From NCBI RefSeq assembly GCF_019264575.1, contig NZ_JAHUZV010000026.1: 64,000 bases of DNA; one strand, given 5' to 3'. Below, one piece after another: positions 877 to 24,285 of this stretch (positions within the stretch are counted from its first letter, which is position 1; the number at the start of each line of letters is the position of its first letter). Source of the DNA: Vulcanococcus sp. (GTDB taxonomy: Bacteria; Cyanobacteriota; Cyanobacteriia; PCC-6307; Cyanobiaceae). Made by a program: the position numbers and the translations under genes. The notes beneath the pieces are model-generated. The model had not been told where the DNA came from, did not search any database, and worked only from the letters and a program-made list of their open reading frames with translations.

Positions 877-1373
877 GGACACCAGCCTTGAGCATGCGGA
901 ACGATAGTGGTGCTGACGGAAAGGGGTATAGCCGCGGCGGTGAAGGTTGCGTTCAGTTGATTGCCTGAGGGTGTGTAGGTCACTTTCACCTCCACCGGAG
1001 GCACGCTGTTCACGATGAAGCTGCTGGGTTTTTCTGATGCCGGTAGAGCATTCAGGAGGCCTTGGCCCAGGTTATTGGTGCTGCACAATGGCTTCAGAGT
1101 GGCTAGATCGAAGGCAAGGGACTTGGTGAGTTCCGTATTGGCGCAACCCTGAGTGCAGAGATAACGGAAGGCTTCTTCTCTGAGGGTTTCCATATGGGAA
1201 GCGATATCTGCATCAACCAATCCACGCTGCTTGGAACGGCCCATGCCAAGGATCGAAGAGCCTGTCATTTGCAGGCTACTGAGGACAACCAGAATCAAAA
1301 TGAACGAGGCCACCATCACCTCGGGCAGGCTGAAGGCTGTCTGGATTGGCTGCGAGCGTGGAATCGACCTCAT
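873..1373 (-). CDS. Minor pilin (PilV-like)
   Basis: TA|FSLPEVMVASFILILV prepilin motif followed by hydrophobic helix; paired Cys. Confidence 0.8.
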   Translation of the reverse strand: MRSIPRSQPIQTAFSLPEVMVASFILILVVLSSLQMTGSSILGMGRSKQRGLVDADIASHMETLREEAFRYLCTQGCANTELTKSLAFDLATLKPLCSTNNLGQGLLNALPASEKPSSFIVNSVPPVEVKVTYTPSGNQLNATFTAAAIPLSVSTTIVPHAQGWCP

Positions 1374-1401
1374 GGCTGCCTCTCTGGTGTCATGTGTGTC
1401 T

Positions 1402-2811: not shown

Positions 2812-3268
2812 CTTTTGTGCAGGCGGTGATGACTCCTGTTGGCCCATTGATCGAGCAATCGCTTATCCCCAGGTTCGCATTGGCGCCTGAGCCGGTGGCG
2901 TCTACCGTGAATGTGTCACCATCTCCTGTGCATGTATATGTCCAATCGTTTTCGAGGCCATCTGTCCCTGTGATGCCAACGTCGGGGCAGGTGACTCCGG
3001 TGAAGGTTCCTGTTTCGACCCAGATGCTTTGAGCTTGTTTAAGTGCTGCTGAGGCTTTTCCTAGGGGCTCTGTGACTTTTGCTTTGGCACTTTGGCTTAG
3101 GAAGTTTGGTAGCGCTACGGCACTTAAGATGCCAACAATCACGATCACAATCATCAGCTCCACCAGTGTGAAGCCTTTCTGGAGAAGGTTCTTCTTCCCG
3201 CTTGGTGATTGGCCCAGCTGGCGCATCAGCGCCGTGCGCATCTGAGGGTGGAGGGTGGAAGTGGTCAT
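2792..3268 (-). CDS. pilA: Major type IV pilin
   Basis: KG|FTLVELMIVIVIVGILSAVALPNFL, 32-aa basic leader typical of picocyanobacterial pilins, four Cys in C-terminal domain. Confidence 0.88.
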   Translation of the reverse strand: MTTSTLHPQMRTALMRQLGQSPSGKKNLLQKGFTLVELMIVIVIVGILSAVALPNFLSQSAKAKVTEPLGKASAALKQAQSIWVETGTFTGVTCPDVGITGTDGLENDWTYTCTGDGDTFTVDATGSGANANLGISDCSINGPTGVITACTKDVDASS

Positions 3269-3344
3269 GGATTGGTTGCACAGGGGCATGTCTTCAACGT
3301 ATTCAGCGCAGATCTGCTGCACCAGAAGTGTTGGTCGTTGATTG

Positions 3345-3363
3345 TCTGAGAGTTTTCTGAGAG
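3345..3363. promoter_or_regulatory. Tandem direct repeat TCTGAGAG-ttt-TCTGAGAG, candidate OmpR-family binding site
   Basis: Exact 8-bp repeat with 11-bp period in the pilA / histidine kinase divergent intergenic region. Confidence 0.45.
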
Positions 3364-3421
3364 CGGCTTGGTGGTGCTGGCTGCTTCTCCTGCCTACGGT
3401 TGTGGAAGCTGACGCCTGTGG

Positions 3422-4903
3422 GTGCCTGCCGCTCGTCCGGCCGCTTCGATCCGTCGCCACCTGCAGGCCACGAGCTTGTTGGCTGTGCTGGCGGGGTACG
3501 TGCTGTTGCTGCTCGTGAACCGGCAGCTGTCAGCGCGTCTGCGTCATGAGCGTCATGACGCACAAGTGCAGGAGACCACGCGCTTGTTGCAGCAGTTGCT
3601 GCCCCAGCAGACCGACACCACCAGTGAGCTCCAGCGCCACTTGGCGGACCTGGCTAGTCCTTCCCTGTTGGTGTGGATGGTGTGGCTCGAGCCTGATCAT
3701 CCGGCCAGTGGTCCGGTCATCCTTCCCAGTGGGGCTGCCTTCCAGTCACTCCATGCTGGTCATGGGCTGGTTCGTGCTGCTGATGCGGCCCTGTCGCAAG
3801 ACGGCATGCCGCGCGAGTTTCGTTTCAACGGGCGCACGTATTTCACCTGCGCGATGCCGGTGCAACTGGCTGGGCGCTCCTATCACCTGCGTTTCCTCCA
3901 GGACTTCACCCTGGAAACCGAGCAGGAGCAACTGATTAGCCTGCTGTTGGTGGCGGTGGCGGGCGCTTCTGCGTTGTTCACCTCTGCGTTGTTGCGCCTT
4001 GTGATTCATCGGGGCTTGCTGCCACTGGATGTGTTCAGCGCCACGCTCGCGAGCATCAGCACCCGCTCTCTCAGCACCGAACGGCTTTCACTCAAAGGCC
4101 AACCTGCAGAGCTGCACCCGATTGCTAACGCCTTCAACGACCTCTTGGACCGTCTGGCAGAAGCCTGGGAGCACCAGCGCACCTTCGTGAATGGCGTGTC
4201 GCATGAGCTGCGCACACCGATCACTCTGATCAGTGGCTACAGCCGCCGGTTGCTGCGCCGCGCCGAGGGCTTGAACGCAGAGCAGCGCGAGCAGTTGGAG
4301 TTGGTGGCCTCTGAGGCCGAATCGATGGGGCGGCTTGTGAACGATCTGCTCGAGATCGCCCGGGATGATGCCGGCCGCTTGCAGCTGGAGAGTCGCCAGT
4401 TGGATCCCGCCACACTGCTGGAAGACCTGCATCGCCGCCTACAAGACACCACCAACGGTCGCCTGTTCCTGCAGCCGCTCCCTAGCAGCTACGCCGATGT
4501 GTGCGCCGATCCCGAACGGCTTAGCCAGTGCTTAACCAACTTGGTGGAGAACGCCCTGAAATACAGCCCCGCTGCTCAGCCCATTGAGTTGGCTCTCAGT
4601 AGTGAGACGGATCAAGTGGTGCTCCACGTGCTCGACCACGGTGCTGGTGTGCCTGCAGCGGAGCGGGAGCAGATTTTTGGCCGCTTTGTGCGGGGCAGCG
4701 GTAGTGCTGACACAAGCGGCCATGGCATCGGCTTGGCTGTGGTGAAAACCCTGATGGAGCGCATGGGTGGTTCGGTGTCGGTGGGAGATACCCCAGGCGG
4801 TGGCGCCGATTTCCAGTTGCGCTTGCCGGCGGTGTTGAGCACTCCGGTGGAGGAGCGCTCCAGCCGTAGCGCCAGCCTGCGGCGCTGGTTTAGTCCTGGT
4901 TGA
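3422..4903 (+). CDS. Sensor histidine kinase (2 TM, HAMP, HisKA, HATPase_c)
   Basis: FVNGVSHELRTPI H-box, NLVENALKYS N-box, DHGAG G1, GHGIGLAVV G2. Confidence 0.95.
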   Translation: MPAARPAASIRRHLQATSLLAVLAGYVLLLLVNRQLSARLRHERHDAQVQETTRLLQQLLPQQTDTTSELQRHLADLASPSLLVWMVWLEPDHPASGPVILPSGAAFQSLHAGHGLVRAADAALSQDGMPREFRFNGRTYFTCAMPVQLAGRSYHLRFLQDFTLETEQEQLISLLLVAVAGASALFTSALLRLVIHRGLLPLDVFSATLASISTRSLSTERLSLKGQPAELHPIANAFNDLLDRLAEAWEHQRTFVNGVSHELRTPITLISGYSRRLLRRAEGLNAEQREQLELVASEAESMGRLVNDLLEIARDDAGRLQLESRQLDPATLLEDLHRRLQDTTNGRLFLQPLPSSYADVCADPERLSQCLTNLVENALKYSPAAQPIELALSSETDQVVLHVLDHGAGVPAAEREQIFGRFVRGSGSADTSGHGIGLAVVKTLMERMGGSVSVGDTPGGGADFQLRLPAVLSTPVEERSSRSASLRRWFSPG

Positions 4904-5246
4904 GCCAGTGCTCGAGTTGTGCCAGCGCTTCGGTTTTCAACAGCGTGGCTGCCGCGCCCGCGGCCTGAGCCGTGGCTTGCACCTGCGGGTCACACAAGGC
5001 CGTCACCACCACCACAAGCCCGTTGAACTGGCGTGCCCGCAGCTCCAGCAGTGTGGCTTCGCCGTTCAGGCCCGGCATCATCCAATCGAGCAACACCAGC
5101 TGCACCGCGTTCAGCTGCGCGGCGCTGAGCAACTCGCTGCCGTCGCGGCAGCGCAGCACGGTGGCCCCAAGATCCTCCAGCTCCGCCGCCAGCAGCTCAC
5201 GGATGCGGGCGTCATCGTCCACCACGGCCACGAGCGGGGCGCTCAT
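4890..5246 (-). CDS. Single-domain response regulator (CheY-like receiver)
   Basis: VVDDD, LVLLDWMMP, VVVTA and LLK conserved receiver residues; no output domain. Confidence 0.9.
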   Translation of the reverse strand: MSAPLVAVVDDDARIRELLAAELEDLGATVLRCRDGSELLSAAQLNAVQLVLLDWMMPGLNGEATLLELRARQFNGLVVVVTALCDPQVQATAQAAGAAATLLKTEALAQLEHWLNQD

Positions 5247-5980
5247 TCGGCCGGCTCCTTGATCGCCCCGGCCTTGAGCAGAAAGCCCACACCACGCACG
5301 GTTTGGATCAAGGTGGGCTGGCCGGGGGGTTCGAGCTTGCGGCGCAGATAGCGCACATACACATCGAGCACGTTGGCGTCGCCCACGAAGCTTTCGCCCC
5401 ACACGCGCTCCAGCAGGCTCTGGCGGCTCTGCACTCGCCCGGGATCTGCCAGCAGGCAGTGGAGCAGCTGGAACTCGGTGCGGCTGAGCTGCACGGGCAC
5501 ACCGCCGCGGCTCACCTCATGGCTGGCCAGATCCAGCTGCAGATCCTCCAGCTGCAGCACCTCGCTTGATCCTTGTCCGGTAAAAGCCGCTGGGCTCCGC
5601 CGGGCCAGGGCCCGCAGCCGCGCCAGTAGCTCCTCGATCGAAAACGGCTTCACCAGGTAGTCGTCAGCGCCGGAATCGAGGGCCTGCACTCGATCGGCCA
5701 CCGCATCTCGGCCGGTGAGCATCAGCACCGGTAGCTGCAGGCCGGTGGAGCGCAAGCGCTGACACACCTCCACGCCGCTCAGGTCCGGCAGCATCCAATC
5801 GAGGATCACCAGGTCGGGCGGCTGCTGGCGGATCTCGGTGAGGGCGCCGATGCCATCTCCGAAGCTGCGCACCGCATACCCCTCCTCCTGCAGCTCGAGT
5901 TCCAGGAACTGGCGCAGTCGAGCGTCGTCATCAGCCAGAAGAACGCTGGTGGCCTGGCCGCCCGCGCTGACGGATGCCAT
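5243..5980 (-). CDS. OmpR-family response regulator (NblR/MprA-like)
   Basis: LADDD...LVILDWMLP...YLVKPF receiver plus winged helix (VLDVYVRYLRRKLE...IQTVRGVGF). Confidence 0.95.
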   Translation of the reverse strand: MASVSAGGQATSVLLADDDARLRQFLELELQEEGYAVRSFGDGIGALTEIRQQPPDLVILDWMLPDLSGVEVCQRLRSTGLQLPVLMLTGRDAVADRVQALDSGADDYLVKPFSIEELLARLRALARRSPAAFTGQGSSEVLQLEDLQLDLASHEVSRGGVPVQLSRTEFQLLHCLLADPGRVQSRQSLLERVWGESFVGDANVLDVYVRYLRRKLEPPGQPTLIQTVRGVGFLLKAGAIKEPAE

Positions 5981-5991
5981 GGTGTGCCGCA

Positions 5992-6891
5992 ATGGCTCCC
6001 CCTGTCTTACCCGAATCTGCGGCATCACGCCTGCTGCGCTGGCACCCCCGCAACCTGGCGGCACGCATGGCCCGCTGGGGGGTGGTGATCGTGCTCGTGT
6101 ATTTGATGATTGCCTTGCTCACGCCGCTGTTCACCCACCTGGGTGTGCTGCCGGATGTGAACGCTGGCCTCGATAACCCCATCTATGCGCCGCCCTCCTG
6201 GCAGCACTGGTGCGGTACCGACCGCCTGGGCCGCGATGTGTGCAGCCGCACCCTTGCCGGCAGTGGTGTGGCCCTGCAGGTGGTGGCGATTGCCTTGGTG
6301 TCAGCCCTGGTGATCGGCGTGCCGCTGGGCATGGTGAGCGGGTACCTCGGCGGCTGGCTCGATCGCGGCCTCGTGCTGCTGATGGACACGCTCTACACGC
6401 TGCCAGTGTTGCTGCTTTCGGTGGTGCTTGCCTTCCTGCTGGGCAAGGGCTTACCGAATGCCGCTGCGGCGTTGTGTGTTGTTTATGTGCCCCAATACTT
6501 CCGCGTGGTGCGCAACCAAACGGCCCAGGTGAAAGCCGAACTGTTCGTGGAGGCGGCTCGCTCGCTCGGGGCTGGGCCGATCTGGATCCTGCGCCGCTAT
6601 CTGTTCCGCAACGTGATCACCTCTGTTCCAGTGCTGCTCACCCTCAACGCCGCCGATGCGGTGCTCGTGCTCGGCGGCTTGGGTTTCTTGGGGCTTGGCC
6701 TGCCGGAAACCGTGCCCGAATGGGGCAGCGATCTGCAGCAGGCGCTCAGCGCCCTGCCCACAGGCATCTGGTGGACAGCGCTCTATCCCGGCGTGGCGAT
6801 GTTTGTGCTGGTGCTGGGGCTCTCGTTTCTGGGTGAAGGGCTCGAAAGCTGGCTCAGCGGCAGCGGTGCCAATGGGCGTTCGCAGAGCTAA
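5992..6891 (+). CDS. Peptide/nickel ABC transporter permease (DppC/OppC family)
   Basis: HWCGTDRLGRD motif, EAARSLGA EAA loop, LGFLGLG...PEWG. Confidence 0.92.
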   Translation: MAPPVLPESAASRLLRWHPRNLAARMARWGVVIVLVYLMIALLTPLFTHLGVLPDVNAGLDNPIYAPPSWQHWCGTDRLGRDVCSRTLAGSGVALQVVAIALVSALVIGVPLGMVSGYLGGWLDRGLVLLMDTLYTLPVLLLSVVLAFLLGKGLPNAAAALCVVYVPQYFRVVRNQTAQVKAELFVEAARSLGAGPIWILRRYLFRNVITSVPVLLTLNAADAVLVLGGLGFLGLGLPETVPEWGSDLQQALSALPTGIWWTALYPGVAMFVLVLGLSFLGEGLESWLSGSGANGRSQS

Positions 6892-12181: not shown

Positions 12182-13185
12182 ATCACCACCAGATCGCTAT
12201 GGCCAATGGCCAGAGCGGTGACCAACATCCCCAGCACCAGGAACGGCTGTGCGCTGGCCTGGTACTTCACGTCAAAGGCCACTGGATCGCGCAGCAGCCA
12301 GATGTCCTGGAAGGTGATCTGCGGAATGATCAGCAGCACCAACAGCACGGCAGCGAAATGCTGCCCAATGGCAATCAGCACGGCCACCATCGCCAGCTGA
12401 AACACATCGATCATCCCGGCGCTAATCCAGCTGGCTTTCTCGATGCCGAAGGCCACGGGAAGCGATTGCAGGCCCAGCGCCCGATCACCTTCGACGCTTT
12501 TGAAGTCGTTCACCACCGCGATGCCAAGCCCAGCTAGGGAGTAGGCGAGGGTGAGCAGGGCCGTGGTCCAGGTGAGTTGGCCGAAGAGGGCCTGGCCGGC
12601 CCACCACGGCAGGGCGATGTAACTGGCGCCAAGGGCGTAGTTGCCCAGCCAACCGTTTTGCTTGAGCTTGAGCGGTGGTGCTGAATAAATGAAGCTCACA
12701 AAGGAGCCGCCGAGAGCCAGCAACAACAGCACCGGTGTGGTGTGCCCGGCCCAAAGATCCAAGCCGTAGGCCACACCCAGGCCAGCCAGCAGCAGCACCC
12801 AGATCTGCGCTTTCACCTGCCAGAGAGGAATCGCACCTGAGGGAATCGGCCTGTAGGGCTCGTTGATCGCGTCGATCTCGCGGTCGTAGTAGTCGTTGAT
12901 CGTTTGCGTGTAGCCGGCTAGCAGAGGCCCGCTCATCAACATGCAAGCGATCGAAGCGCCCACTTCGCTGAAGGTCCAGTGGAAGTTGCCCGATGCAGCG
13001 GCGCCGCAGAGCACACCCCAGATCAAGGGGATCCAGGTGACCGGCTTCATCAGCTGCAGCCGGATCTTCCAGATGTTGGAGGTGCCGCTGGCACCTTTCA
13101 TGCCCAGCAGCTGGCGTGCCCCGGCACCGCTGCTGGCGGTGGGGTTGGGTGAGTTGGGGTTGGAGTCGCTCGTGGTTTCGCTCAC
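12178..13185 (-). CDS. chlG: Chlorophyll synthase
   Basis: ARQLLGMKGA, RLQLMKPVTWIPLIWG, NDYYDREIDAINEPYRPIPSG; GTG start chosen. Confidence 0.97.
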   Translation of the reverse strand: MSETTSDSNPNSPNPTASSGAGARQLLGMKGASGTSNIWKIRLQLMKPVTWIPLIWGVLCGAAASGNFHWTFSEVGASIACMLMSGPLLAGYTQTINDYYDREIDAINEPYRPIPSGAIPLWQVKAQIWVLLLAGLGVAYGLDLWAGHTTPVLLLLALGGSFVSFIYSAPPLKLKQNGWLGNYALGASYIALPWWAGQALFGQLTWTTALLTLAYSLAGLGIAVVNDFKSVEGDRALGLQSLPVAFGIEKASWISAGMIDVFQLAMVAVLIAIGQHFAAVLLVLLIIPQITFQDIWLLRDPVAFDVKYQASAQPFLVLGMLVTALAIGHSDLVVM

Positions 13186-13198
13186 AGGGGCTGACGGA

Positions 13199-13411
13199 TC
13201 AGGCAGCGGTGATCTCGTCGTCGAAGAACCAGGTGGTGGTGCCATTGGCCAGCTCCACCACCACGCCGATGCCCTTGCCGTCGGTCACTTTGAAGTCCTT
13301 CACGGTGCCGGTGGCATCGGCCTGGAGGGCGGACACAAGGTCAGCGGGGATGCGGTCGCGCACCCGGGTGACCCGCACCTTCGAGCCGATGGTGATGGCA
13401 GCCTGGGACAT
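13199..13411 (-). CDS. DUF2862 / PetP-like small protein
   Basis: MSQAAITIGSKVRVTRVRDRIP...KVTDGKGIGVVVEL...WFFDDEI, C-terminal 70 aa of the 330-aa track ORF. Confidence 0.8.
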   Translation of the reverse strand: MSQAAITIGSKVRVTRVRDRIPADLVSALQADATGTVKDFKVTDGKGIGVVVELANGTTTWFFDDEITAA

Positions 13412-13489
13412 GTCCGGCGCGACGCAAAAGTGGCGCCAGGTTAGCCCCTGTCCTGCGGCCATCTGGCCCTCAGCCCTTCCCCTGCCGCC

Positions 13490-14266
13490 ATGGTTGCCAA
13501 ACGGATCATTCCCTGCCTTGACGTGGCTGAGGGCCGGGTGGTGAAGGGGGTGAACTTCGTTGGCCTGCGTGATGCCGGCGATCCCGTGGAGCTGGCCTGC
13601 CGCTACAGCGCCTCCGGTGCCGATGAATTGGTGTTTCTGGATATCGCCGCCTCCCACCAGGGCCGCGCCACCCTCGTGGATCTGGTGCGCCGCACTGCCG
13701 AAGCGGTGACGATCCCCTTCACGGTGGGCGGCGGCATCAGCACGGTGGAAGGGATCACCGAATTGCTGCGCGCCGGAGCCGACAAGGTGAGCCTCAACTC
13801 CTCGGCGGTGCGCGATCCCGAGCTCGTGGCCCGGGGGGCAGAGCGCTTCGGTTGCCAGTGCATCGTGGTGGCGATCGATGCTCGCCGCCGTGAGCAAGGC
13901 GGCTGGGATGTGTATGTGAAGGGCGGGCGCGAGAACACCGGCCTGGATGCGGTGGCGTGGGCCCAGCGGGTGGTGGCTCTGGGGGCGGGCGAGATCCTGC
14001 TCACCTCCATGGATGGGGATGGCACCCAGGCGGGCTATGAGCTCAACCTCACGCGCGCTGTGGCTGATGCGGTGGATGTGCCTGTGATCGCCAGCGGCGG
14101 TGCCGGCTGCATCGATCACATCGCCCAAGCCCTCGAAGCCGGTCCCCAGGGGGGGCATGCCTCCGCGGCTCTGCTTGCCTCCCTGTTGCATGACGGCGTG
14201 CTCACCGTGGAGGAGATCAAAACGGATCTGCTTGGTCGGGGTTTCAACATCCGCCCGCTCGCGTAG
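13490..14266 (+). CDS. hisF: Imidazole glycerol phosphate synthase subunit HisF
   Basis: KRIIPCLDV...[26 protein letters not shown]. Confidence 0.98.
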
Positions 14267-14316
14267 GCCTGTTACGCGCCGTTACATTCGTCTCAGATTC
14301 GCTCGCTGGCGCGTTC

Positions 14317-14613
14317 GTGCACGCCCTGGTTCAGACCCACTCCACAATGCTGGCCGTGGTGCTTGTGGTGGCGGTGGTGGCCATGGTGGCCTGGGCGCTG
14401 CAGCTGATGCAGGCGGCCGCCGATCGCAAGGAGTTCTCGCTGATGCTGGCCGGCTGCATGGTCTGCTCGGCGGCGGTGGGCTTGGCAGCTGTGATGGTGA
14501 TGAGCTTCACCAGTGCAGATCGCGTTGAGGCGCAGCTTCAGGCTGGAGGTGTCAGTCTCGATGCGATCTCCCTGCCCTGGGATGCCAGCTTCGATTCAAC
14601 CCGGCGATCCTGA
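14317..14613 (+). CDS. Small two-TM hypothetical membrane protein
   Basis: Two hydrophobic segments flanking DRKEFSLMLAG; fills the hisF-menG gap. Confidence 0.62.
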   Translation: MHALVQTHSTMLAVVLVVAVVAMVAWALQLMQAAADRKEFSLMLAGCMVCSAAVGLAAVMVMSFTSADRVEAQLQAGGVSLDAISLPWDASFDSTRRS

Positions 14614-15298
14614 GCAGGTTCGCGATCTGTTTGATCGCATCGCCCCGGCCTACGACAACCTCAACGACCTGCTCAGCCTGGGCTTGCACCGCATCTGGAA
14701 GCGGCAATCCGTGGCCTGGCTGGAGCCACAAGCCGGTCAGTGTGTGCTCGACCTCTGTTGCGGCACAGGGGATCTGGCTCTCGTGGTGGCAGAGAAGGTG
14801 CGCCCGGCTGGTCTCGTGCTGGGCATCGATGCTGCGGCTGCGCCACTGGAGCGTGCCCGGCAGCGGGCCCGGGCCCAACCGTGGTTGCCGGTGGAGTTTC
14901 GCCAGGGGGATGCCGCAGCCACGGGTTTAGCGGATGCCTCAGCTGACGCCGCGGTGATGGCCTACGGGCTGCGCAACTTGCCCGACCCGGCCGCAGGGCT
15001 TCAGGAGTTGCGCCGCTTGCTTCGTCCAGGTGGGCGCGCTGCGGTACTTGATTTCAATCGACCGGCCAAGCCGCAGGGCTCCACAGCGGCCTTCCAGCGG
15101 TTTTATCTGCGCCGGCTGGTGGTGCCGTTGGCCCGCCGGGCTGGGCTGGAAGATCAGTACGCCTACCTGGAGCGCAGCCTGGAGCGTTTTCCCACGGGGG
15201 CGGAGCAGGAGGAGCTGGCGGTGGCAGCGGGTTTTGGTTTTGCGCGTCACCGTCTGCTGGCGGGAGGCCAGATGGGGTTGCTGCAGCTGGTGGCCTGA
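14582..15298 (+). CDS. menG: UbiE/MenG-family quinone methyltransferase
   Basis: LFDRIAPAYDNLNDLLSLGLHRIWK, VLDLCCGTGDLA, YGLRN; start uncertain. Confidence 0.88.
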   Translation: MPASIQPGDPEQVRDLFDRIAPAYDNLNDLLSLGLHRIWKRQSVAWLEPQAGQCVLDLCCGTGDLALVVAEKVRPAGLVLGIDAAAAPLERARQRARAQPWLPVEFRQGDAAATGLADASADAAVMAYGLRNLPDPAAGLQELRRLLRPGGRAAVLDFNRPAKPQGSTAAFQRFYLRRLVVPLARRAGLEDQYAYLERSLERFPTGAEQEELAVAAGFGFARHRLLAGGQMGLLQLVA

Positions 15299-15541
15299 GC
15301 GTGCTGCTGTTGCTCCAGTTCGCGCTCCTGCTTCGCTGAGAGCAGCACAGTTACCGCGCTGATCAGCAGGGCGGACAGGATGATGCTGAGTCCGAGGTCG
15401 GGTCCCGTCTGAGAGCAGCGGTTGCTTTCAGGCTGGGGCTGCGGCGCTGGTGCGTCAGTAGGTGGTTGTGCCTGCTGTGAACGGCCGCTGGGCAGAATCG
15501 GGGGCCGAGCGCGCCCACGCCGGCCTCATCAGGAGCAGATC

Positions 15542-16432
15542 GTGCATTTCCAGGACATCATCAGCACCCTCAACCGCTTCTGGGCCGAGCGGGGCTGCCT
15601 GATCCTGCAGCCCTACGACACCGAAAAGGGCGCCGGCACGATGAGCCCCCACACGGTGCTGCGGGCGATCGGTCCTGAGCCGTGGGCGGTGGCGTATCCA
15701 GAGCCGTGCCGGCGTCCCACTGATGGGCGCTATGGCGATAACCCCAACCGTGCGCAGCACTACTTCCAGTATCAGGTGCTGATCAAGCCCAGCCCCGACG
15801 GCATCCAGGAGACCTATCTGGCCTCGCTCGAGGCCCTGGGCATCAAGCCGGCCGACCACGACATCCGCTTCGTAGAAGACAACTGGGAATCACCCACCCT
15901 CGGTGCTTGGGGTGTGGGCTGGGAGGTGTGGCTCGATGGCATGGAGGTGACCCAGTTCACCTACTTCCAGCAGTGCGGCGGCATCGACTGCCGGCCCGTG
16001 TCGATCGAGATCACCTATGGCCTCGAGCGCCTGGCCATGTATCTCCAAGACGTGGAGAGCATCTGGGATCTCTCTTGGGATGGCAACCGCACCTACGGCG
16101 ACATCTGGCTGCCCTTTGAGAAGGGGCAGTGCACCTACAACTTCGAGGCCTCCAACCCTGAGCGCCTCAAGCAGCTCTTCGCCATCTACGAAGCCGAAGC
16201 CGCGGATCTTGTGGCCAAGCAGCTGCCGGCTCCTGCGCTCGACTTCGTGCTCAAGTGCAGCCACACCTTCAACCTGCTTGAAGCCCGTGGCGTGATCTCG
16301 GTGACCGAGCGCACCGCCACCATCGGCCGCATCCGCAACCTGGCGCGGCAAGTGGCCGAGGCCTGGCTGGCGGAGCGTGAAGCGCTGGGCTTCCCGCTGC
16401 TCGAGCGTCAGCCCGCCCAGATCAGCAGCTGA
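15542..16432 (+). CDS. glyQ: Glycine--tRNA ligase alpha subunit
   Basis: HFQDII...[32 protein letters not shown]. Confidence 0.98.
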
Positions 16433-18201
16433 TCGCTGCCCAGCTGGCCGATGCCCACACCCGCCAATGTGATCTGCTGCTGGTTGAAGCCCAGATCTAC
16501 TCGGGTACCGGCTGAGCCAAGATCCACGAGTCGGGCCTGCTGCCCCTCGCCCCAGAACCCACGCAGGTCGAGGCGGTCGCGGCTGGGATCGAAGCCATTC
16601 ACCACTAGCTGTCGGCCCCAGCTGTAGGAGACCACCACGTCTTCAGCAATGTCGGCCTGGAGGTTGAGGGCTGTGGTGCCCCCGGCCACGTTCAGCGTTT
16701 GCCGCGCCACGGATCCGCCCGGGTTGATGATCGGATCGGTGCTTGGGCTCGTGCTGGGCGTTGTGCTCGGGCTTCCAGCAACAGCACCGCTGAGAACCGG
16801 ATCGCTGCCGTAGTCGCCAAACAGCGTGGCGAAGCTGCCGGCGGGGGTGTTGAGCCCGGCGTGGGTGGCAGTCACCTGGCCCACGATCCCCGGGTTGTCG
16901 CGGGTGAGCGACCACATCGAAAGCATTCCCAGCCCCTTTTCAAGGGCGAAGTTTTCGAGAAGCTGAGCGTCGTCGAGCGTGAACACCTCCGTTGTGACGT
17001 CGTTGGTGCCGATCATGGGCGTGACGCCCAGTTGCCCCCAGCTGAAGCGTTGTCTAGCGGCCGCGAACAGATCCACGAGCTGGGTATGGGTGTTGGTGGC
17101 GGCATCGATGGCGTAGGCACCCATGCTTTTCAGCGCCGGCGGCGCGGCGCTGTCGCCGTAGTCCATCGCCATCACGTTCACGCCGTCGATGCGGGCGCCC
17201 TGCTCAAGCGCAATCCGCACGGTGTTGAGCCCATCGTTGGTGAGGCCCTGCGGCAGAACCGGCAGTGTGAGCCACACCTCCAGATCCGGATGGCTCTGCT
17301 GCATGAGTGCCACTGCCTGCATCTGGAGCCGCAGCGTCTGCGGTTCAGCGATGGCGGCACCTTCGATGTCGAAATCGAGCTTGCGCAGGCCTAGGGCCTC
17401 GACCGCCGAGCCGTAAGCCTCCGCCAGTGCTTCCGCGCCCAAGCCTTTTTGTCGATACACCTGAGCCAGGCTGACGCCAGCGGCTCCCCCTAGCGACACC
17501 ATCACATCACCGCCGCTGGCCCGCAGCGCTTCAATCTCCGTCCGGATGGCGCGGGCTTGTTCGTTGTCGCTGCTGAGGCTGAGTGCATCCAGCCCAGCCC
17601 AGCCCAGTTGGCCGCTGGGCGTGGCTTGCAGGAAGCCCAGCGTCAGCAGGCCCACTCCGTATTGCCGCGCCAGACCATCCAGATCCGGCACCGGGTAGAG
17701 CCCCATATCCACATAGGGCGCGAAGAAGCTGTTGCCCCACCGGTCGCTGCCGGCCGCAGCCGTAGCAATGGGATCTGCCGTGGGTACTGATGGGGTGGGA
17801 GCAGGAGCAGGGGCTGGTGTTGGCTCCGGCACCGGTGCCTGGAGTACGTCGTCGCTTAGCGGAGCACCGGTCAGCACCAGTGTTGGATCAAGGCTGCTGA
17901 GTTGGGTTCCGCTGGGCAGCACCCCCTGCAGATAGGAGCTGTTGCTGGAACCGGCTGCGAGGGTGCCTCCCCAGGAGGGTGGGCTCAGGGTCACCTGCCA
18001 GCTGCCGTCGCTGAGCTGTTGTTGACTCACTGTGAAGTTCGAAACATTGCGCAGCTGGTAGCGACTGTTGAAGCTCAGGCTCCAGTCGTTCAAGTTGGCG
18101 CCAGAGCTGTTGGTCACGGTGACCGTGCCTTCGAACGCACCGCTCCATTGACCAGTCAGCGCCAGGTTCACGCTCAGACCTGGGGTTGAGGCTGCTGCCA
18201 T
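16408..18201 (-). CDS. Modular chitinase: CBM2 - Pro-rich linker - GH18 (PF-ChiA-like) - Ser/Thr linker - C-terminal RTX/T1SS-like tail
   Basis: [14 protein letters not shown]...W CBM2 pattern; [22 protein letters not shown] catalytic DxDx[18 protein letters not shown]; tail [11 protein letters not shown]. Confidence 0.88.
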
Positions 18202-18259
18202 CAGTGACTCCTTGAAGATCGATGCCCTGACCCTCCTGCGCCCCTCCCCTCCTCCACAT

Positions 18260-18273
18260 CCGTCAGATGACGG
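18260..18273. promoter_or_regulatory. Palindrome CCGTCA-ga-TGACGG, candidate operator
   Basis: Perfect 6-2-6 inverted repeat in the 93-bp chitinase/luxR divergent intergenic region. Confidence 0.4.
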
Positions 18274-18294
18274 GTATCTGCGGGCTTCCTAGCT

Positions 18295-19026
18295 TTGATC
18301 CATCTACCGGGTTGCCCGGACTTGCCCTTCAATCCCTCCGATCCCCGTCTGGCCAGTCACTGGACGCGGTTCGATGCCGTGATCAGTCGCTGGCCGGTGG
18401 TGGTGGGGACTGGCGATGAAATCGAGGCCTTTCTCTGCGCCGTGCTCAGTCGGCGTTCTGGAGTACAGACCCGCCTGCTGGGCGCTGGTCTTTGTGAGCG
18501 TGAGGTGCTCGATCTACTGAACAGCGAGCCGTCGGCTTGTCTGCTGCTGTTATCTGATTCCATCGCAGCCGATCAGGGTGTGGCGTTGCTGGAGCGTTGC
18601 CGGCAGCTGCCCCAGCCACCGCAGGTGCTCTACTGCCTGAGCTCAGCAGATGCCGTGGACGTCGACCGATTGCTCGGTCTGGGGGTAAGCGTGATCCTCT
18701 CGATCCACAGCATCGGCAAGCTCAATTTCCGTGAGGCCGCTGATTCCCTGGAACAAGGCCTTCCTTACGTGGACCCGGCGGTACATCGGGCCCTCGCCAT
18801 TGCGGCGGATCTTGGGGATGAGCTCTCGGTGCGGGAGCGGCAGGTGTTGTCGCTGCTGGCCAAGGGGCTGACCAATCGAGAGATTGCTGAGCAGTTGTTC
18901 ATCGCCCCAAGCACTGCTCGCGATTACGTGAGTGTATTGATCAGCAAGTTCAAAGCTGGCAACCGCGTGGAAGTGGCAGCGCGTGCTGTGGAACTCGGCT
19001 ACAGCAGTCAGTTACCCAGCCTCTAA
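18295..19026 (+). CDS. LuxR/NarL-family transcriptional regulator with degenerate receiver domain
   Basis: C-terminal LSVRERQVLSLLAKGLTNREIAEQLFIAPSTARDYVSVLISK LuxR HTH; TTG start uncertain. Confidence 0.9.
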   Translation: MIHLPGCPDLPFNPSDPRLASHWTRFDAVISRWPVVVGTGDEIEAFLCAVLSRRSGVQTRLLGAGLCEREVLDLLNSEPSACLLLLSDSIAADQGVALLERCRQLPQPPQVLYCLSSADAVDVDRLLGLGVSVILSIHSIGKLNFREAADSLEQGLPYVDPAVHRALAIAADLGDELSVRERQVLSLLAKGLTNREIAEQLFIAPSTARDYVSVLISKFKAGNRVEVAARAVELGYSSQLPSL

Positions 19027-19692
19027 TGGCGGCACCGGCACCGCTGGACCGTCGAGGGTGTTGCTGCACAGATCCAGCACAATCCGCTGCCCCACCGTTC
19101 CTGGGGCGGGCGTGTCCCAGCCCTGCCAGGTCCCATCGATCCGCCAGTTCTGGCGGAGGCTGGTGCATTGCACGGCAACGGCCGTGGCGGCTGAACCCCG
19201 CAGGCCCAGATCACTGATCGAGGGCTTCACCAGGGTGATCCGCACCCCGCCGGGATGGAGTTTCCAGCCCGACCAATCCACGGCGGTGGAGTTGAACCAT
19301 TTCCAGCGGGCTAGCCCCGAACGCTCCCGCCACTCGAGTTCGGCGCGGTCGCGCCGCTCGGCCGGGCTGAGCAGCAGCGCGGCGGCGGCCTCGGCATTGC
19401 TGCCCTCAGGCGGCGGCGGTGCCATGGCCTCGGTCGGGGCGCTGTTGCGTTTGGTGGCGCCTCGCACCTCGGGCAGTTTGAGCACTTCCCCCACCTGCAA
19501 CAGCGTTGGATCTCGGATGCCGTTCAGGTCGATCAACGCCTGCAGATCCACGCGGTAGCGCAGGGCTAGCTGCTCGAGCGTGTCGCCCTCCACCACCGTG
19601 ATCGTCCGCGTTTGGCCCAAAGCGGGTGCGCTCCCGATCAGAACAAGGGCCGATGCCAGAGCCAGGACGCGATGCCGTCGCTGCATGGCCAA
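19012..19692 (-). CDS. Secreted LysM-domain protein
   Basis: Signal peptide (RRHRVLALASALVLIGSAPALG), LysM TVVEGDTLEQLALRYRVDLQALIDLNGIRDPTLLQVGEVLKLP, Trp-rich C-terminal domain. Confidence 0.87.
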   Translation of the reverse strand: MAMQRRHRVLALASALVLIGSAPALGQTRTITVVEGDTLEQLALRYRVDLQALIDLNGIRDPTLLQVGEVLKLPEVRGATKRNSAPTEAMAPPPPEGSNAEAAAALLLSPAERRDRAELEWRERSGLARWKWFNSTAVDWSGWKLHPGGVRITLVKPSISDLGLRGSAATAVAVQCTSLRQNWRIDGTWQGWDTPAPGTVGQRIVLDLCSNTLDGPAVPVPPLEAG

Positions 19693-19750
19693 TGGAATCT
19701 CGCTCGAACACTAAGGGAACACTCCCAGCAGTGCTGTTGCGGATCGGACC

Positions 19751-21754
19751 ATGGGCGCCCTGGGGCTGGGAGCGCTGCTGCTGGCGCTTGCCATCGGTGT
19801 GCTGCCGCTGGCTGGGCCGCTCAAGCTGGGGCTGATGGGGGCTCTATTGCTTGCCCTGGTGCTCGGTTTGCGGCGTCGGCCGCGACTGCTGGTGCTGTTG
19901 GCGCTGCTGCTACCCCTGTGTTGTGCGCGAGGCCTGATCGCCCAACCCCATCCGGGCCCTGCAGACCCCTTGCATCGCATTCCGGAGGGGGCGCAGCAGC
20001 AGGCCGTTGTGATCACGGCCCAGCTGCTGGAAGATCCACGCCCTGATCCTTCCGGTCAGCGCTGCAGCGCCCTGGCCCGGCTGCCCGGCGGCCGCAGTGA
20101 GCTGCAGTTCAGCCCGTGCCCGAATCTTCGTCAGGGGTGGCGGCTGCAACTGGAGGGGATGCTGCGCAGGCTCTCGGCTGCGCCCCATCCCCTGCTGTCA
20201 GGCCCTGCCGAGCGCCTGCAGCGCCGCGAGGCCTGGACCGTGCTGCAGGTGCAGCGCTGGCAAGTGCTGGAGCGCGCGCCCACGCCCGTGGCCGACCTGC
20301 GCCGCCGGATGGCGGCTGCCCTGCAGAAAACGGGGGGAGAGCAGGCCGGCGGGGTTCTGTCGGCCCTGGTGCTCGGCAGCGCGGTGAGCCCTTTGCCGCA
20401 GGAGGTGCGGGAGGCCTTTCGCGCTGCCGGTTTGTCGCATGCCCTGGCGGCCAGTGGGTTCCATCTGAGCGTGCTGTTGGGGGCGGTGCTGCTGGTTGCT
20501 CGGCCGCTGCTAGCGCCGTTGCGCTGGGGGATGGCCCTTGTGGCGATGGCCAGCTTCCTATTGCTGGCTGGCGCTCAGCCCTCTGTGGTGAGGGCGGTGC
20601 TGATGGGGGCGTTGGCTTTTGCCTTGCAGGAGGGCGGCCGGCGCACTCGCCCTTTGGCGGTGCTGTTGCTGTGTTTGTTGTTGATGCTTCTGCTGCGGCC
20701 GGCTTGGCTGCTGGATGTGGGCTTTCAGCTCAGTGCCGCCGCCACGGCCGGTTTGATCCTCAGCGCCAGGCCCCTGGAGCAGCAGTTGCGGCGCCATGCA
20801 CCGGCTTGGGCCGCGTCGGCGGCGGCGGTGCCTGTGGCTGCGTCGCTCTGGACCATTCCCTTGCAGCTGCTGCATTTCGGGGTGCTGCCCGTCTACGCAG
20901 TGCCCGCCAACCTGCTCGTAACCCCGCTGCTCACGCCTCTCACCCTGGGCGCGATGGTGATGGCGGCTTTGGCCTTGATTTGCCCGCCGCTGATGAGCGT
21001 GGTGGGTTGGGTTCTGGTGCCTCTGGCGCAGCTGCTCGTGTGGCTGGTGCGGCGGTTGGCGGCCTTGCCGCTGGCCCAGTGCCAACTCGGGCGCATGTCT
21101 CCTTGGTTGGCACTCGCCATGGCCCTGGCGCTGCTGCCGTGGTTGGTGCCGCAGCTCAGGCGCTGGCGGCTGTGGGCGGCGCTCCTGTTGGGTGGCGTGG
21201 CAGCCCTGCAGATGCAGCTGCTTCGGGCCGATCAACTGCTGCTCGTGGAAGACGGCAGCCGGCAGTGGTTGCTCGCACGCCACGCCGGCCGGGCGGCCCT
21301 GATCAGCCGCCGCGCCGATGGCTTCAGCTGCCGCCGCGCCGCTCAGTTGGCCCAGGGGTTGGGCGTGCAGCGCTTCGACTGGGTGCTGTCGCTCGATCCC
21401 CTGACTCCCGAGCAGCCGGAGTGCTGGGCTTCGCTCAGCCCCACCCTGCTGGCTGGCCAAAACGGCAGTCCGCCTCTGGCCGCGGGGCAGCGGCTGCTCA
21501 GCTCCGGTCTGGCGGTGGAGGCCGTGTCAGGCACCAGCCAGGCTCTGCTGCTGGCTGCGGGCCGGTTGCGCTGGGGGCTGCTTCCCGATCGCCAGGCCTG
21601 GTGGAGCTGGCGCGAGCAGCCGGCCCGCGGCGTGGACGGGCTGTGGCTGGGCTTTCGGCCACGCCCTAGCGAGCAGGCTGCGTTGCCGCCCTTGCCGCCC
21701 GAGCGGCTCTGGTGGCCGGCTGCCGGTTCAGCCAGCGGATGGCGCCAGGCTTGA
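19751..21754 (+). CDS. comEC: ComEC/Rec2 competence membrane channel
   Basis: GLSHALAASGFHLSVL, PSVVRAVLMG, DVGFQLSAAAT, PANLL. Confidence 0.92.
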   Translation: MGALGLGALLLALAIGVLPLAGPLKLGLMGALLLALVLGLRRRPRLLVLLALLLPLCCARGLIAQPHPGPADPLHRIPEGAQQQAVVITAQLLEDPRPDPSGQRCSALARLPGGRSELQFSPCPNLRQGWRLQLEGMLRRLSAAPHPLLSGPAERLQRREAWTVLQVQRWQVLERAPTPVADLRRRMAAALQKTGGEQAGGVLSALVLGSAVSPLPQEVREAFRAAGLSHALAASGFHLSVLLGAVLLVARPLLAPLRWGMALVAMASFLLLAGAQPSVVRAVLMGALAFALQEGGRRTRPLAVLLLCLLLMLLLRPAWLLDVGFQLSAAATAGLILSARPLEQQLRRHAPAWAASAAAVPVAASLWTIPLQLLHFGVLPVYAVPANLLVTPLLTPLTLGAMVMAALALICPPLMSVVGWVLVPLAQLLVWLVRRLAALPLAQCQLGRMSPWLALAMALALLPWLVPQLRRWRLWAALLLGGVAALQMQLLRADQLLLVEDGSRQWLLARHAGRAALISRRADGFSCRRAAQLAQGLGVQRFDWVLSLDPLTPEQPECWASLSPTLLAGQNGSPPLAAGQRLLSSGLAVEAVSGTSQALLLAAGRLRWGLLPDRQAWWSWREQPARGVDGLWLGFRPRPSEQAALPPLPPERLWWPAAGSASGWRQA

Positions 21755-21790
21755 GCTGGCACCCTGGTCTCTACACTGCATCGGTCGCCT

Positions 21791-21875
21791 GGAGAGGTGG
21801 CTGAGTGGTCGAAAGCGAACGACTCGAAATCGTTTGAAGGGCAACCTTCCGTGGGTTCGAATCCCACCCTCTCCG
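21791..21875 (+). tRNA. tRNA-Ser(CGA)
   Basis: GGAGAGG/CCTCTCC acceptor stem, AACGA-CT-CGA-AA-TCGTT anticodon arm, long variable arm, GGTTCGAATCC. Confidence 0.97.
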
Positions 21876-21972
21876 CTTCACCAACTCACCCAAGATTCGG
21901 GTTGGTTTGCTGGCCGAGCATTCGGCTGCAAAAGTTTTCTCACCGGCCAGGATTGACAGCCGTTCGGAGATC

Positions 21973-22215
21973 TCAGCTGTGAAAGAGCAGCACGAGGCCG
22001 CGGCTCACTTGATGGAATTCCCGTTCCTCGCGGCTGAGATCCAATCCCACCTGAAGGCCTTCTTCCAGCGCGTTCTCGAAGGGCGGTTGGGTGGGTGGGT
22101 GGCCATCGGTCCACAGCGCGGCAATGCCCACCGGCGTGGCGTGCCAGACAAACCGTTGTGTGGCCCCGATCGAAGGTTCATCGAGGGCGTCTTCCAGGAG
22201 CTCGCGGATCGCCAT
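21973..22215 (-). CDS. Small hypothetical protein (80 aa)
   Basis: MAIRELLEDALDEPSIG...WHATPVGIAALW...LDLSREEREFHQV; coding-like composition, resembles a picocyanobacterial hypothetical as I recall it. Confidence 0.65.
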   Translation of the reverse strand: MAIRELLEDALDEPSIGATQRFVWHATPVGIAALWTDGHPPTQPPFENALEEGLQVGLDLSREEREFHQVSRGLVLLFHS

Positions 22216-22331
22216 GGCAAGTGGGCTCTGGCGCCAGCATCGAGATTTGCCGCTCTGATCGCAATCAGCTGACAGTTTTTGTGATCTGGTGAGCAATCCT
22301 TCTTCAAGGTGCCGGCTTTACCTTGGCCTGG

Positions 22332-23528
22332 ATGGCACAACTTCCCGGCCCCGCCGCTCTCGTGCACGAGTGGTTCACGCCCCGCTCCGTGGGTGGTGCC
22401 GAGCTGGTGGTGCAACAGCTCGATGCGCTGCTGGAGCAGCCGCAGCTGGCGGCTCTGGTGGATGGGGAGAGCAGTCGTGCTGCGAGTTGGCTAGCTGGGC
22501 GCTCCATCCAAACCTCCTTCGTGCAGCAGTTGCCCTGGGGGGTGAGCCATGTGCAGCAATACCTGCCGCTGCTTCCGCTGGCGATTGAGCAGCTGGATCT
22601 GGCTCCTTATCCGCTGGTGATCAGCAGCAGCCACCTGGTGGCCAAAGGGGTGCTCACCAGTCCGGATCAATGCCATCTGAGCTACGTGCACACCCCCGTG
22701 CGCTACGCCTGGGATCAGATGCACGCCTATCTGCGCCAGTCGGCTTTGGCCAGGCGCGGCTTGTCGCCCCTGATCCGCTGGCAGCTGCATCGCCTGCGCC
22801 AATGGGATGTGCTCAGTGCGCAGCGGCCCGATGTACTGATCGCCAACTCCCGCTTCACCGCAGCCCGCATTCGCCGCTACTGGGGGCGCTCCTCCACGGT
22901 GGTGCATCCGCCGGTGGCGCTGGAGCGCTTCCGCTGGGATCAACCCCGCGACGACGTGTATCTCTGCCTCTGCCGCCTGGTGCCCTACAAGCGGGTTGAT
23001 CTGGTGGTGCAGGCCTTCAACGCCACCGGACTCCCGCTGGTGGTGATCGGTGATGGCCCGGAGCGCCAGCGCCTTGAAGCCATGGCAGGGCCGACTGTGC
23101 GGCTGCTGGGCCGCCTCCCGCAAGAGGAGGTGAACAGCTGGCTTGGCCGTTGCAGGGCCTACGTGTATGCGGGGCTCGAGGATTTCGGCATTGCGCCCGT
23201 GGAGGCGATGGCCTCGGGCGCGCCGGTGATCGGCTTGGGGCAGGGCGGACTGCTCGACAGCGTGCGCTGCATCACCAGTGGCTGCGATCAACCCACTGGC
23301 CTGTTGTTCCCGGAACAATCGCTGCAGGCTTTGGTGGCCGCGCTCGAGCATTTCGAGCAGCAACGCTTGTGGACGCAGCTCCCGGCCGCTTCGTTGCGCC
23401 AATGGGCCGAGCGCTTCAGCCCACAGCGGTTCCGCCAGCGCAGCCAGGCCCTGATCGAGCAGGTCTGGAGCCGCCATCAACGGCAGCTGGCCCAACGCAG
23501 CCGCCCGATGTCTGTGCCTCTGGGGTGA
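22332..23528 (+). CDS. Glycosyltransferase family 4
   Basis: VHEW...GGAE, SYVHTPVRYAWD, RLVPYKRVD, EDFGIAPVEAMASGAPVI. Confidence 0.92.
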   Translation: MAQLPGPAALVHEWFTPRSVGGAELVVQQLDALLEQPQLAALVDGESSRAASWLAGRSIQTSFVQQLPWGVSHVQQYLPLLPLAIEQLDLAPYPLVISSSHLVAKGVLTSPDQCHLSYVHTPVRYAWDQMHAYLRQSALARRGLSPLIRWQLHRLRQWDVLSAQRPDVLIANSRFTAARIRRYWGRSSTVVHPPVALERFRWDQPRDDVYLCLCRLVPYKRVDLVVQAFNATGLPLVVIGDGPERQRLEAMAGPTVRLLGRLPQEEVNSWLGRCRAYVYAGLEDFGIAPVEAMASGAPVIGLGQGGLLDSVRCITSGCDQPTGLLFPEQSLQALVAALEHFEQQRLWTQLPAASLRQWAERFSPQRFRQRSQALIEQVWSRHQRQLAQRSRPMSVPLG

Positions 23529-23589
23529 GTGACCGCCGCTGCGGGGCCCGCGGAGCGCTGCACTTCTTTAATGAATCCATATCGCACCG

Positions 23590-24285
23590 TTGAGCACGCG
23601 CCGTTTGTCCTCCGCCTCGATCCCGGCTGAGTCCACGGCCAGCAGCCTGCTGGCGGCTCAGTCGTTGCGCGGGCGGGTGCTCAAGCGGGGCGGCGACATT
23701 GTCTTTTCGCTGTTGGTGCTCGGTCTGGGGTCACCGCTGTTTCTGCTGCTGGCGGTACTGGTGAAGCTCAGCTCGCGGGGCTCTGTGTTCTATTGCCAGC
23801 GCCGCATCGGCCGCGGCTACAAGGGCTTTGGCTGCCTCAAGTTCCGCACGATGCGCCGCGATGCCGACCGGGTGCTCGCCGCGATGCTGGAGGCGGACCC
23901 CAAGCTGCGGGCGGAATTCGAGCGCGATCACAAGCTCAAGCGTGATCCCCGCATTACCCCGCTGGGCAAATTCCTGCGGCGCTCCAGCCTCGATGAGCTG
24001 CCCCAGTTCATCAACGTGCTGCGCGGGGAGATGAGTGTGGTGGGGCCGCGGCCGATCGTGTGGGATGAGCTGCGCCGCTACGGCCGCAACATGGATGAGG
24101 TGCTTTCCGTGCGGCCGGGGCTTACGGGCCTTTGGCAGGTGTCGGGCCGCAACAACCTCACCTACCGCACCCGGGTGCGCCTGGATCTCACCTATGTGCG
24201 TAACCGCAGCTTCTGGCTGGATCTAGGCATCGTGCTGCGCACCATCGGTGTGGTGCTGCTGCCGATGGATCGCGGCGCCTATTGA
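23590..24285 (+). CDS. Polyprenyl-phosphate sugar (priming) transferase, Bac_transf family
   Basis: KRGGDIVFS, KFRTM, KRDPRITPLGKFLRRSSLDELPQF, RPGLTGLWQVSGR. Confidence 0.93.
   Translation: MSTRRLSSASIPAESTASSLLAAQSLRGRVLKRGGDIVFSLLVLGLGSPLFLLLAVLVKLSSRGSVFYCQRRIGRGYKGFGCLKFRTMRRDADRVLAAMLEADPKLRAEFERDHKLKRDPRITPLGKFLRRSSLDELPQFINVLRGEMSVVGPRPIVWDELRRYGRNMDEVLSVRPGLTGLWQVSGRNNLTYRTRVRLDLTYVRNRSFWLDLGIVLRTIGVVLLPMDRGAY

Follow-up and report, generated by a model that had tools for sequence, protein, structure and literature searches.

The stretch of DNA analysed here (the window) comprises 64,000 nt of contig NZ_JAHUZV010000026.1 from a Vulcanococcus sp. assembly, whose host we take to belong to picocyanobacterial subcluster 5.2, and its subject is a CBM2-GH18 chitinase gene and a LuxR-type regulator gene lying between glyQ and comEC. 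The glycine-tRNA ligase alpha gene glyQ (15542-16432, + strand; PF02091, E 2.7e-142) is the ancestral left flank. It is followed by the gene for the 597-aa chitinase (16408-18201, -), which was assigned from Pfam, PDB matches and alignment, and by the gene for a 234-aa regulator of the LuxR/NarL family (18322-19026, +; 243 aa if TTG at 18295 is the start), which was recognised by its GerE domain. A secreted LysM protein (19012-19686, -, with 19692 as an alternative start; LysM 49.9 bits) is the ancestral neighbour of comEC, and comEC itself (19751-21754, +; Competence domain E 6.9e-55, DUF4131 E 3e-8) is a core gene and the ancestral right flank. The original prediction, made by reading the sequence, had given these five open reading frames with their order, strands and domains, and all lie where it placed them. 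Its 25-bp glyQ/chitinase overlap (16408-16432), 15-bp luxR/lysM overlap (19012-19026) and 58-bp lysM/comEC spacer were also correct, the spacer becoming 64 bp if ATG at 19686 is the lysM start.

The window was aligned with L168, a metagenome-assembled genome (MAG; GCA_019264515.1, labelled Vulcanococcus sp.) that served as the insert-free sister genome. Window positions 13001-16405 matched L168 at 97.2% identity and positions 19028-24000 at 97.0%, and nothing aligned between them. In place of the 2,622 bp at 16406-19027 (no strand assigned), L168 has the 15 bp GGCTAAGAGGGAGGC, which contain the overlapping stop codons of glyQ (...PLLEG*) and lysM (...PPPPS*). The insert thus defined contains exactly two genes, those of the chitinase and the LuxR-type regulator. 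In the window, glyQ lost its original stop to the insertion and reads on into the insert, which supplies its last nine codons (RQPAQISS*); the final codons of lysM (...PPLEAG*) are likewise insert-derived, and the original lysM stop is lost. The two convergent overlaps therefore arose from insertion at the glyQ and lysM stops, and the tight packing, which had been read as the mark of a cassette, loses that meaning. The proposal of an accessory insertion holds for the chitinase and the regulator, but lysM, which it had included, lies outside the limits of the insert.

We searched the insert for signs of how it arrived. No terminal inverted or direct repeats were found at its ends, it carries no integrase or transposase gene beside the chitinase and regulator genes, and there is no target-site duplication, 15 bp of target having been replaced and not duplicated; on these grounds a mobile element or an integrase-mediated island was rejected. 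The window also holds no second copy of the tRNA-Ser 3' end. Identity to L168 over 13001-24000 is a mosaic in which blocks of 100% alternate with blocks of 90-96%, and this pattern suggests frequent homologous recombination in the population. A recombination tract centred on the insert was considered and rejected, since the mosaic does not single out the junction. The module would have reached the glyQ/lysM junction by recombination.

For the phyletic pattern, 80 glyQ loci from reference genomes were compared with 10-kb flanks. In most cyanobacterial loci comEC lies directly 3' of glyQ (Cyanobium, Synechococcus, Nostoc, Leptolyngbyaceae and others), and because this adjacency spans Nostocales to Synechococcus/Cyanobium, glyQ-comEC is, judged by gene order, an old conserved pair. 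The chitinase or regulator occupied this site in 0/80 loci, and lysM was there in one, the Cyanobium MAG L066. Altogether, five chitinase-free relatives have lysM between glyQ and comEC: L066 and the Vulcanococcus-type genomes L168, L170/L171 (Vulcanococcus limneticus) and L172. The LysM protein is 80% identical to that of the window in L172 and 68% in V. limneticus. The full order glyQ-chi-luxR-lysM-comEC is kept in L084, where the chitinase is 78% identical, and the insert-derived lysM tail was present in only about 8/120 LysM clusters. Close homologues of the regulator are about as scarce as those of the chitinase, the two sets falling away together near 76% and 72% identity, respectively; LysM homologues are far more numerous.

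The regulator-chitinase pair was also found in six other contexts (L085/86, L087, L088, L089, L095 and L178), none of which has lysM, comEC or glyQ. There the chitinase, 47-71% identical, lies immediately 3' of a homologous regulator in tandem, whereas in the window lineage the two genes are divergent. Of the seven independent genomic contexts in which the pair is found, one places it beside comEC. In other relatives, unrelated inserts occupy the glyQ/comEC junction: two sulfatases with a formylglycine-generating enzyme in L008, TPR proteins in L078 and an SBF transporter in L007. L004 has an integrase, and no comEC was found there downstream of glyQ. Because of the single context in seven and these unrelated inserts, the adjacency of chitinase and comEC is no more than chance would give; comEC is the neighbour since it belongs to an old gene pair around a variable junction. 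The synteny check across relatives that the original prediction had proposed showed that the three genes are not gained or lost together. Their phyletic patterns are independent, which that prediction had named as counting against a single unit, and only the chitinase and luxR travel as a pair; lysM, present without the chitinase in five relatives, is no part of the insertion.

The divergent promoter region between the chitinase and luxR measures 93-120 bp and contains an 18-bp palindrome, ATCCGTCAGATGACGGGT, at 18258-18275 (no strand assigned). It reads ATCCGTCA-GA-TGACGGGT, with the consensus AYCCKTCA-NN-TGAMGGRT, and is a candidate operator of the LuxR-type regulator on the basis of its conservation upstream of chitinases. 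In the window it precedes both genes, with 57 nt between it and the chitinase ATG and 19-46 nt between it and the luxR start. Related palindromes were found 52-66 nt upstream of the chitinase in L084 (55 nt), L085/86 (54 nt in L085), L087 (53 nt), L088 (66 nt), L089 (about 55 nt), L095 (52 nt) and L178 (55 nt, with 2 mismatches), so the position is kept whichever way luxR is oriented. The sites other than that of L178 have at most one mismatch, and no further site with at most one mismatch occurred in the 2.12 Mb scanned. Within the 64-kb window there was one match at up to 2 mismatches, compared with 0.05 expected; at 3 mismatches, 3 were found in total compared with 1.4 expected, the two elsewhere lying near 46.9 and 60.1 kb, which is the chance level. 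The lysM/comEC spacer and the surroundings of the pilin genes had no copy with up to 2 mismatches. The main support for the operator is a shared palindrome at a fixed distance in intergenic DNA that otherwise cannot be aligned.

The insert was also traced in environmental samples. In the metagenomes X3, X4 and X6 (samples labelled as lake water, freshwater and marine plankton), some contigs run from 16401/2/7 straight to 19027/28/30 and skip the insert, and they coexist with insert-bearing contigs in these samples. An RNA contig in metatranscriptome X27 also skips the insert. Depth in X3, X4 and X6 was 5-20 over most of the insert compared with 66-326 over most of glyQ, the glyQ depth coming partly from other strains at least 90% identical. 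In lake populations the module is a presence/absence polymorphism, carried by a minority.

RNA contigs from four lake metatranscriptomes of two studies, taken together, cover the chitinase from about 16372 to 18210 at 95-100% identity. In X26 and X28 the chitinase was assembled, whereas glyQ, luxR, lysM and comEC yielded no contigs, a pattern that speaks against carry-over of DNA. Coverage of luxR and lysM was weak in X25 and X27, where comEC was represented by one 173-nt contig with 8 mismatches. The luxR signal is weak, with a gap at 18744-18977. RNA contigs end at 18206/18210 on the chitinase side and at 18276 on the luxR side, and these ends are weakly compatible with divergent transcription starting on both sides of the palindrome.

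RNA contigs in X25 and X27 also cover 18978-19445, and this bears on an accidental coupling in which luxR transcription runs into lysM towards the lysM/comEC promoter and dampens or alters both genes by antisense or interference. The convergence of luxR and lysM with a 15-bp overlap, for which no intrinsic terminator was predicted at the junction, fits such read-through, as do these spanning contigs. However, the contigs carry no strand information, the luxR RNA is weak and interrupted as described above, and nothing that we saw shows an effect on comEC; any effect would be a side-effect in the window lineage only. We consider this coupling quite unlikely.

Taken together, these data lead us to read 16406-19027 as a patchily distributed, self-regulated chitinase-plus-regulator module inserted in the variable junction of old neighbours, with a probability of roughly 80%. 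The chitinase and the LuxR-type regulator very likely work together, and this part of the original prediction is supported by the recurrence of the pair in six other contexts and by the palindrome. A regulator dimer would bind the palindrome at 18258-18275 and control transcription of the chitinase and probably of its own gene; the distance of about 55 nt from the chitinase start would suggest activation. The input signal may be a chitin breakdown product, which is a guess. The genes lysM, comEC and glyQ are the ancestral residents of the site and would stand outside the regulation of the module.

Several points weigh against this reading. The operator is deduced from conservation, with a consensus built from the same sites that it then matches, and the operator scan of this genome covered 64 kb. 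The window regulator is only 24-32% identical to the tandem-locus regulators, compared with 36-42% to a paralogue group that does not adjoin a chitinase, and this family of regulators may have been paired with the chitinase on more than one occasion. The event at the junction could be a gain in the window lineage or a recombinational replacement of the insert in the sister lineage. RNA depth taken from contigs is a poor measure, and a depth of zero is no proof of absent RNA.

The arrangement could otherwise be seen, as the original prediction had it, as one cassette in which the chitinase, the LuxR-type regulator and the LysM protein respond to N-acetylglucosamine (GlcNAc) polymers and couple chitin colonisation to transformation through the lysM/comEC promoter. 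Such a cassette would account for the physical adjacency and tight packing and for the retention of the arrangement in L084 at 78% chitinase identity. GlcNAc polymers are possible ligands of all three domains (CBM2, GH18 and LysM), the LysM domain resembles those of the chitin-binding proteins Ecp6 and CEBiP, and the pilin genes described about 13 kb away are indeed present as a minor-pilin-like cluster (367-3460, -) with N_methyl motifs and one GspH-like protein. However, the limits of the insert leave lysM out, lysM-comEC-glyQ occurs without the pair in five relatives and the pair without lysM or comEC in six contexts, and the glyQ-comEC neighbourhood is ancient, with unrelated inserts at its junction in other genomes. 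An operator copy is absent from the lysM/comEC spacer and from the rest of the window, and the spacer is near-identical in the insert-free L168, so the regulator is not supported as a driver of the lysM/comEC promoter. Chitinase RNA was moreover found with essentially no comEC RNA. With phyletic independence, an operator unique to the chitinase promoter region and this RNA pattern, the proposed link between chitin and competence is not supported, and we regard the one-cassette model as highly improbable. A version confined to this lineage, in which the insertion did connect chitin sensing with DNA uptake, the regulator acting on the lysM/comEC promoter at a site that differs from the palindrome or luxR read-through interfering with lysM/comEC, is very unlikely; if true, it would be the first chitin-competence link in a cyanobacterium.

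The chitinase begins with a CBM_2 domain (PF00553) at residues 11-99, which scores 35.8 bits against a cut-off of 24, and Trp 19, 40 and 77 of this module are invariant in an alignment of 23 sequences. The Glyco_hydro_18 model (PF00704) gives 28 bits, below its cut-off of 29.6, and alone would miss the enzyme. Residues 147-462 match PDB 9buf, named 'Exochitinase 1' (E 2.4e-62), and the Pyrococcus furiosus chitinase 2dsk (E 4.6e-36). The catalytic motif LDFDIEG is at 275-281 (DFDIE at 276-280), with D276, D278 and E280 unchanged across 23 homologues; of the longer motif DxxDxDxE the first Asp is missing, as it is in 9buf and 2dsk. Because homology to 9buf/2dsk is clear and the DFDIE motif is retained, the assignment as a GH18 chitinase, made by comparison of sequences, is firm despite the Pfam score. 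The Pyrococcus furiosus 2dsk and 9buf belong to the same GH18 subfamily, are alignable over about 300 residues and keep D-x-D-x-E, but they have other accessory modules and another organismal context.

The overall architecture is CBM2, a Pro/Thr linker, GH18 (about 147-462), another linker and, at the C-terminus, a conserved domain of about 95 aa. This last domain (about 500-597) is common to the chitinase and its 22 aligned homologues, with the signature WGRxL..GFDPxxDxLDL..FNQQ..IWxG, and it had no Pfam match even at E 10. Some relatives have RTX repeats in its place. An N-terminal signal peptide is absent from the chitinase and from its 22 aligned homologues, and because a Sec signal is lacking, export by a non-Sec, possibly type I, route is suggested. 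Two loci and one protein show the GH18 domain fused to other enzymes: a 1,076-aa protein in L088 (754-3984) combines a classical ChiA-type GH18, CBM2 and a GH18 of this type, and L095 (7959-11546) and P0058 are GH18-CBM2-GH9 fusions of 977-1,195 aa. The L088 and L095 fusion genes are preceded by the same regulator family and palindrome; for P0058 the analysis covered the protein alone.

Some GH18 enzymes cleave peptidoglycan by lysozyme activity, and the GH18 enzyme might be a cell-wall hydrolase that acts with the LysM protein on the murein of its own cell or of a neighbour, and not in chitin scavenging. The lack of a Sec signal peptide and the best PDB matches of the LysM domain, which are cell-wall-binding endopeptidase proteins, would agree with this role. 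It is set against closest solved relatives that are named chitinases (9buf and 2dsk), a CBM2 module that binds crystalline polysaccharide, relatives in which this GH18 is joined to GH9 or to a classical ChiA-type GH18, and an enzyme whose distribution is independent of lysM. A murein hydrolase is thus unlikely, and we retain the reading of a chitinase with its own regulator.

The regulator has a C-terminal helix-turn-helix matching GerE (PF00196; 57.9 bits, residues 176-229). Response_reg (PF00072) matched neither the regulator nor any full-length homologue. The Autoind_bind domain gave no match either, and similarity to SdiA is confined to the helix-turn-helix at residues 176-235. In the AlphaFold2 model (mean predicted local distance difference test score, pLDDT, 87), five beta-alpha units precede the helix-turn-helix. 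The top Foldseek matches were the full-length NarL/FixJ regulators Spr1814, LiaR, DesR and VraR (E 5e-10 to 9e-8), and FixJ and RcsB were also among the matches, the range being 5e-10 to 1e-6 with FixJ included. A quorum-sensing LuxR was rejected, as the autoinducer-binding domain is missing and the N-terminal fold is receiver-like. In the phosphorylation pocket the acidic pair and the Lys are not conserved, and the acceptor position is ambiguous, with Ser/Asp here and Glu in the tandem-locus group. The insert has no kinase gene. The regulator is probably an atypical orphan response regulator, in whose receiver-like domain a phosphorylation pocket could not be recognised. Some atypical NarL/FixJ regulators act without phosphorylation, and VpsT of V. 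cholerae is one that binds cyclic di-GMP. VpsT (PDB 3kln/3klo) resembles the regulator in its receiver-like fold with GerE and its non-canonical pocket residues (fold match E 5.5e-5), whereas the best fold matches of the regulator are the canonical Spr1814, LiaR and DesR.

Full-length homologues among the matches were only P0241-P0258, and the regulator family appears to be restricted to picocyanobacteria. In L175, the gene of the paralogue P0253 (6001-6738), 36-38% identical, lies about 1.3 kb upstream of a gene for a 5,661-aa FG-GAP/BNR protein, with two small opposite-strand genes between them. A similar, perfect palindrome, CCGACA-AC-TGTCGG, was observed at 7903-7920 of L175, 79 nt before the ATG of the 5,661-aa protein gene. 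The idea that every regulator of the family is linked to a chitinase was rejected, as the P0253 subgroup is near this giant surface-protein gene. The atypical LuxR family may control genes of secreted or surface proteins through CCGNCA-N2-TGNCGG palindromes, with the chitinases and the 5,661-aa protein as candidates, and we consider this more likely than a wiring of chitin to competence.

The LysM protein has a Sec-type signal peptide, identified by eye, and a LysM domain at residues 31-74. The best PDB matches of this domain are the bacterial cell-wall-binding proteins noted above. LysM domains bind both peptidoglycan and chitin. Since the gene is present next to comEC in relatives free of the chitinase, its distribution points to a putative periplasmic, peptidoglycan-related role. 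The C-terminal domain (19012-19380, -) of about 100 aa is strongly conserved with two invariant Cys; it had no Pfam match even at E 10 and no PDB match, and the structure model, whose pLDDT was 48 outside the LysM domain, did not have the quality that a fold search needs. The spacer at 19687-19750 contains the motif CTAAGGGAACACTCCC, which is kept in L084 (with the insert) and in L168 and L172 (without it), and V. limneticus has a related form. This motif may act as a promoter or regulatory element that lysM and comEC, the ancestral pair, have in common. In ComEC, Competence (PF03772) and DUF4131 are present and TIGR00361 scores 117 bits, below its cut-off of 190. No metallo-beta-lactamase (Lactamase_B) domain was detected in ComEC by Pfam/NCBIfam, and no HxHxDH motif was seen by eye in its C-terminal part of about 200 aa (21150-21754).

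Marine picocyanobacteria are known to use chitin and to have ChiA enzymes of the CBM2-GH18 type (Capovilla et al. 2023, PMC10194020; PMC10651935), and culture supernatants of Synechococcus WH7803 have chitinase activity (PMC10194020; PMC10651935). The marine ChiA of Synechococcus WH7803 and Prochlorococcus LLIV resembles the present enzyme in its CBM2 modules and GH18 and in being encoded by patchy accessory genes for which horizontal acquisition is presumed. It differs in domain order, the present enzyme having one N-terminal CBM2, GH18 and an extra conserved C-terminal domain, and the host here is freshwater and brackish. Metagenome contigs of 49-57% GC encode GH18 domains 50-51% identical to the window chitinase, and neither a LuxR-type regulator nor the palindrome was found at these chitinase loci. 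The chitin papers PMC10194020, PMC10651935 and PMC11851481 mention neither a LuxR-type regulator nor competence, and a review of cyanobacterial competence cites chitin for Vibrio cholerae only (PMC7690421). In V. cholerae (ChiS, TfoX, QstR; Meibom et al. 2005, cited in PMC7690421), as here, chitinase, comEC and type IV pilin genes occur in one organism. However, no co-inheritance, shared operator or co-expression was found here, the adjacency is explained by the insertion site, and the window showed no component of the TfoX or ChiS type.

The gene class is thus already known, and the novelty is modest: a dedicated regulator with its palindrome, the anatomy of the insertion, the population polymorphism and the expression in situ. 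A chitin-competence module in cyanobacteria loses support, and the locus illustrates that overlapping genes can stem from insertion and need not mean functional coupling. Chitinases were reported in only 7% of subcluster 5.2 strains (PMC11851481); here the chitinase is polymorphic among genomes with 97%-identical flanks and within single lake samples. This polymorphism and the transcription in situ bear on how picocyanobacterial populations partition particle attachment and the use of organic carbon and nitrogen. The recurrent regulator and palindrome offer a testable handle on the control of picocyanobacterial chitinases, a question left open by the chitin papers cited above.

Other features of the window were noted. 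The left insert junction is spanned by an imperfect palindrome (16385-16420), a candidate 3'-end structure common to the convergent transcripts of glyQ and the chitinase; chitinase RNA contigs end near it, at 16372/16373, in two runs. A sigma-70 promoter scan of 16300-19900 returned 0 sites, and terminator-like sites in this region were no more frequent than by chance. A tRNA-Ser(CGA) gene (21791-21876, +) is located directly 3' of comEC (ARAGORN; Rfam tRNA 62.8 bits), and the Rfam scan of 15000-23000 gave nothing else above threshold. Beyond this tRNA, phage-type integrase genes were present in L170 (3093-4373), together with Bro-N and AlpA genes, and in L172 (2229-2981), which suggests that tRNA-Ser(CGA) is a tRNA-linked island site. 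The minor-pilin-like cluster is followed by a histidine kinase gene (3422-4903) and then by genes for OmpR-type and stand-alone receiver proteins (4890-6064), and the remaining genes of the window are housekeeping genes.

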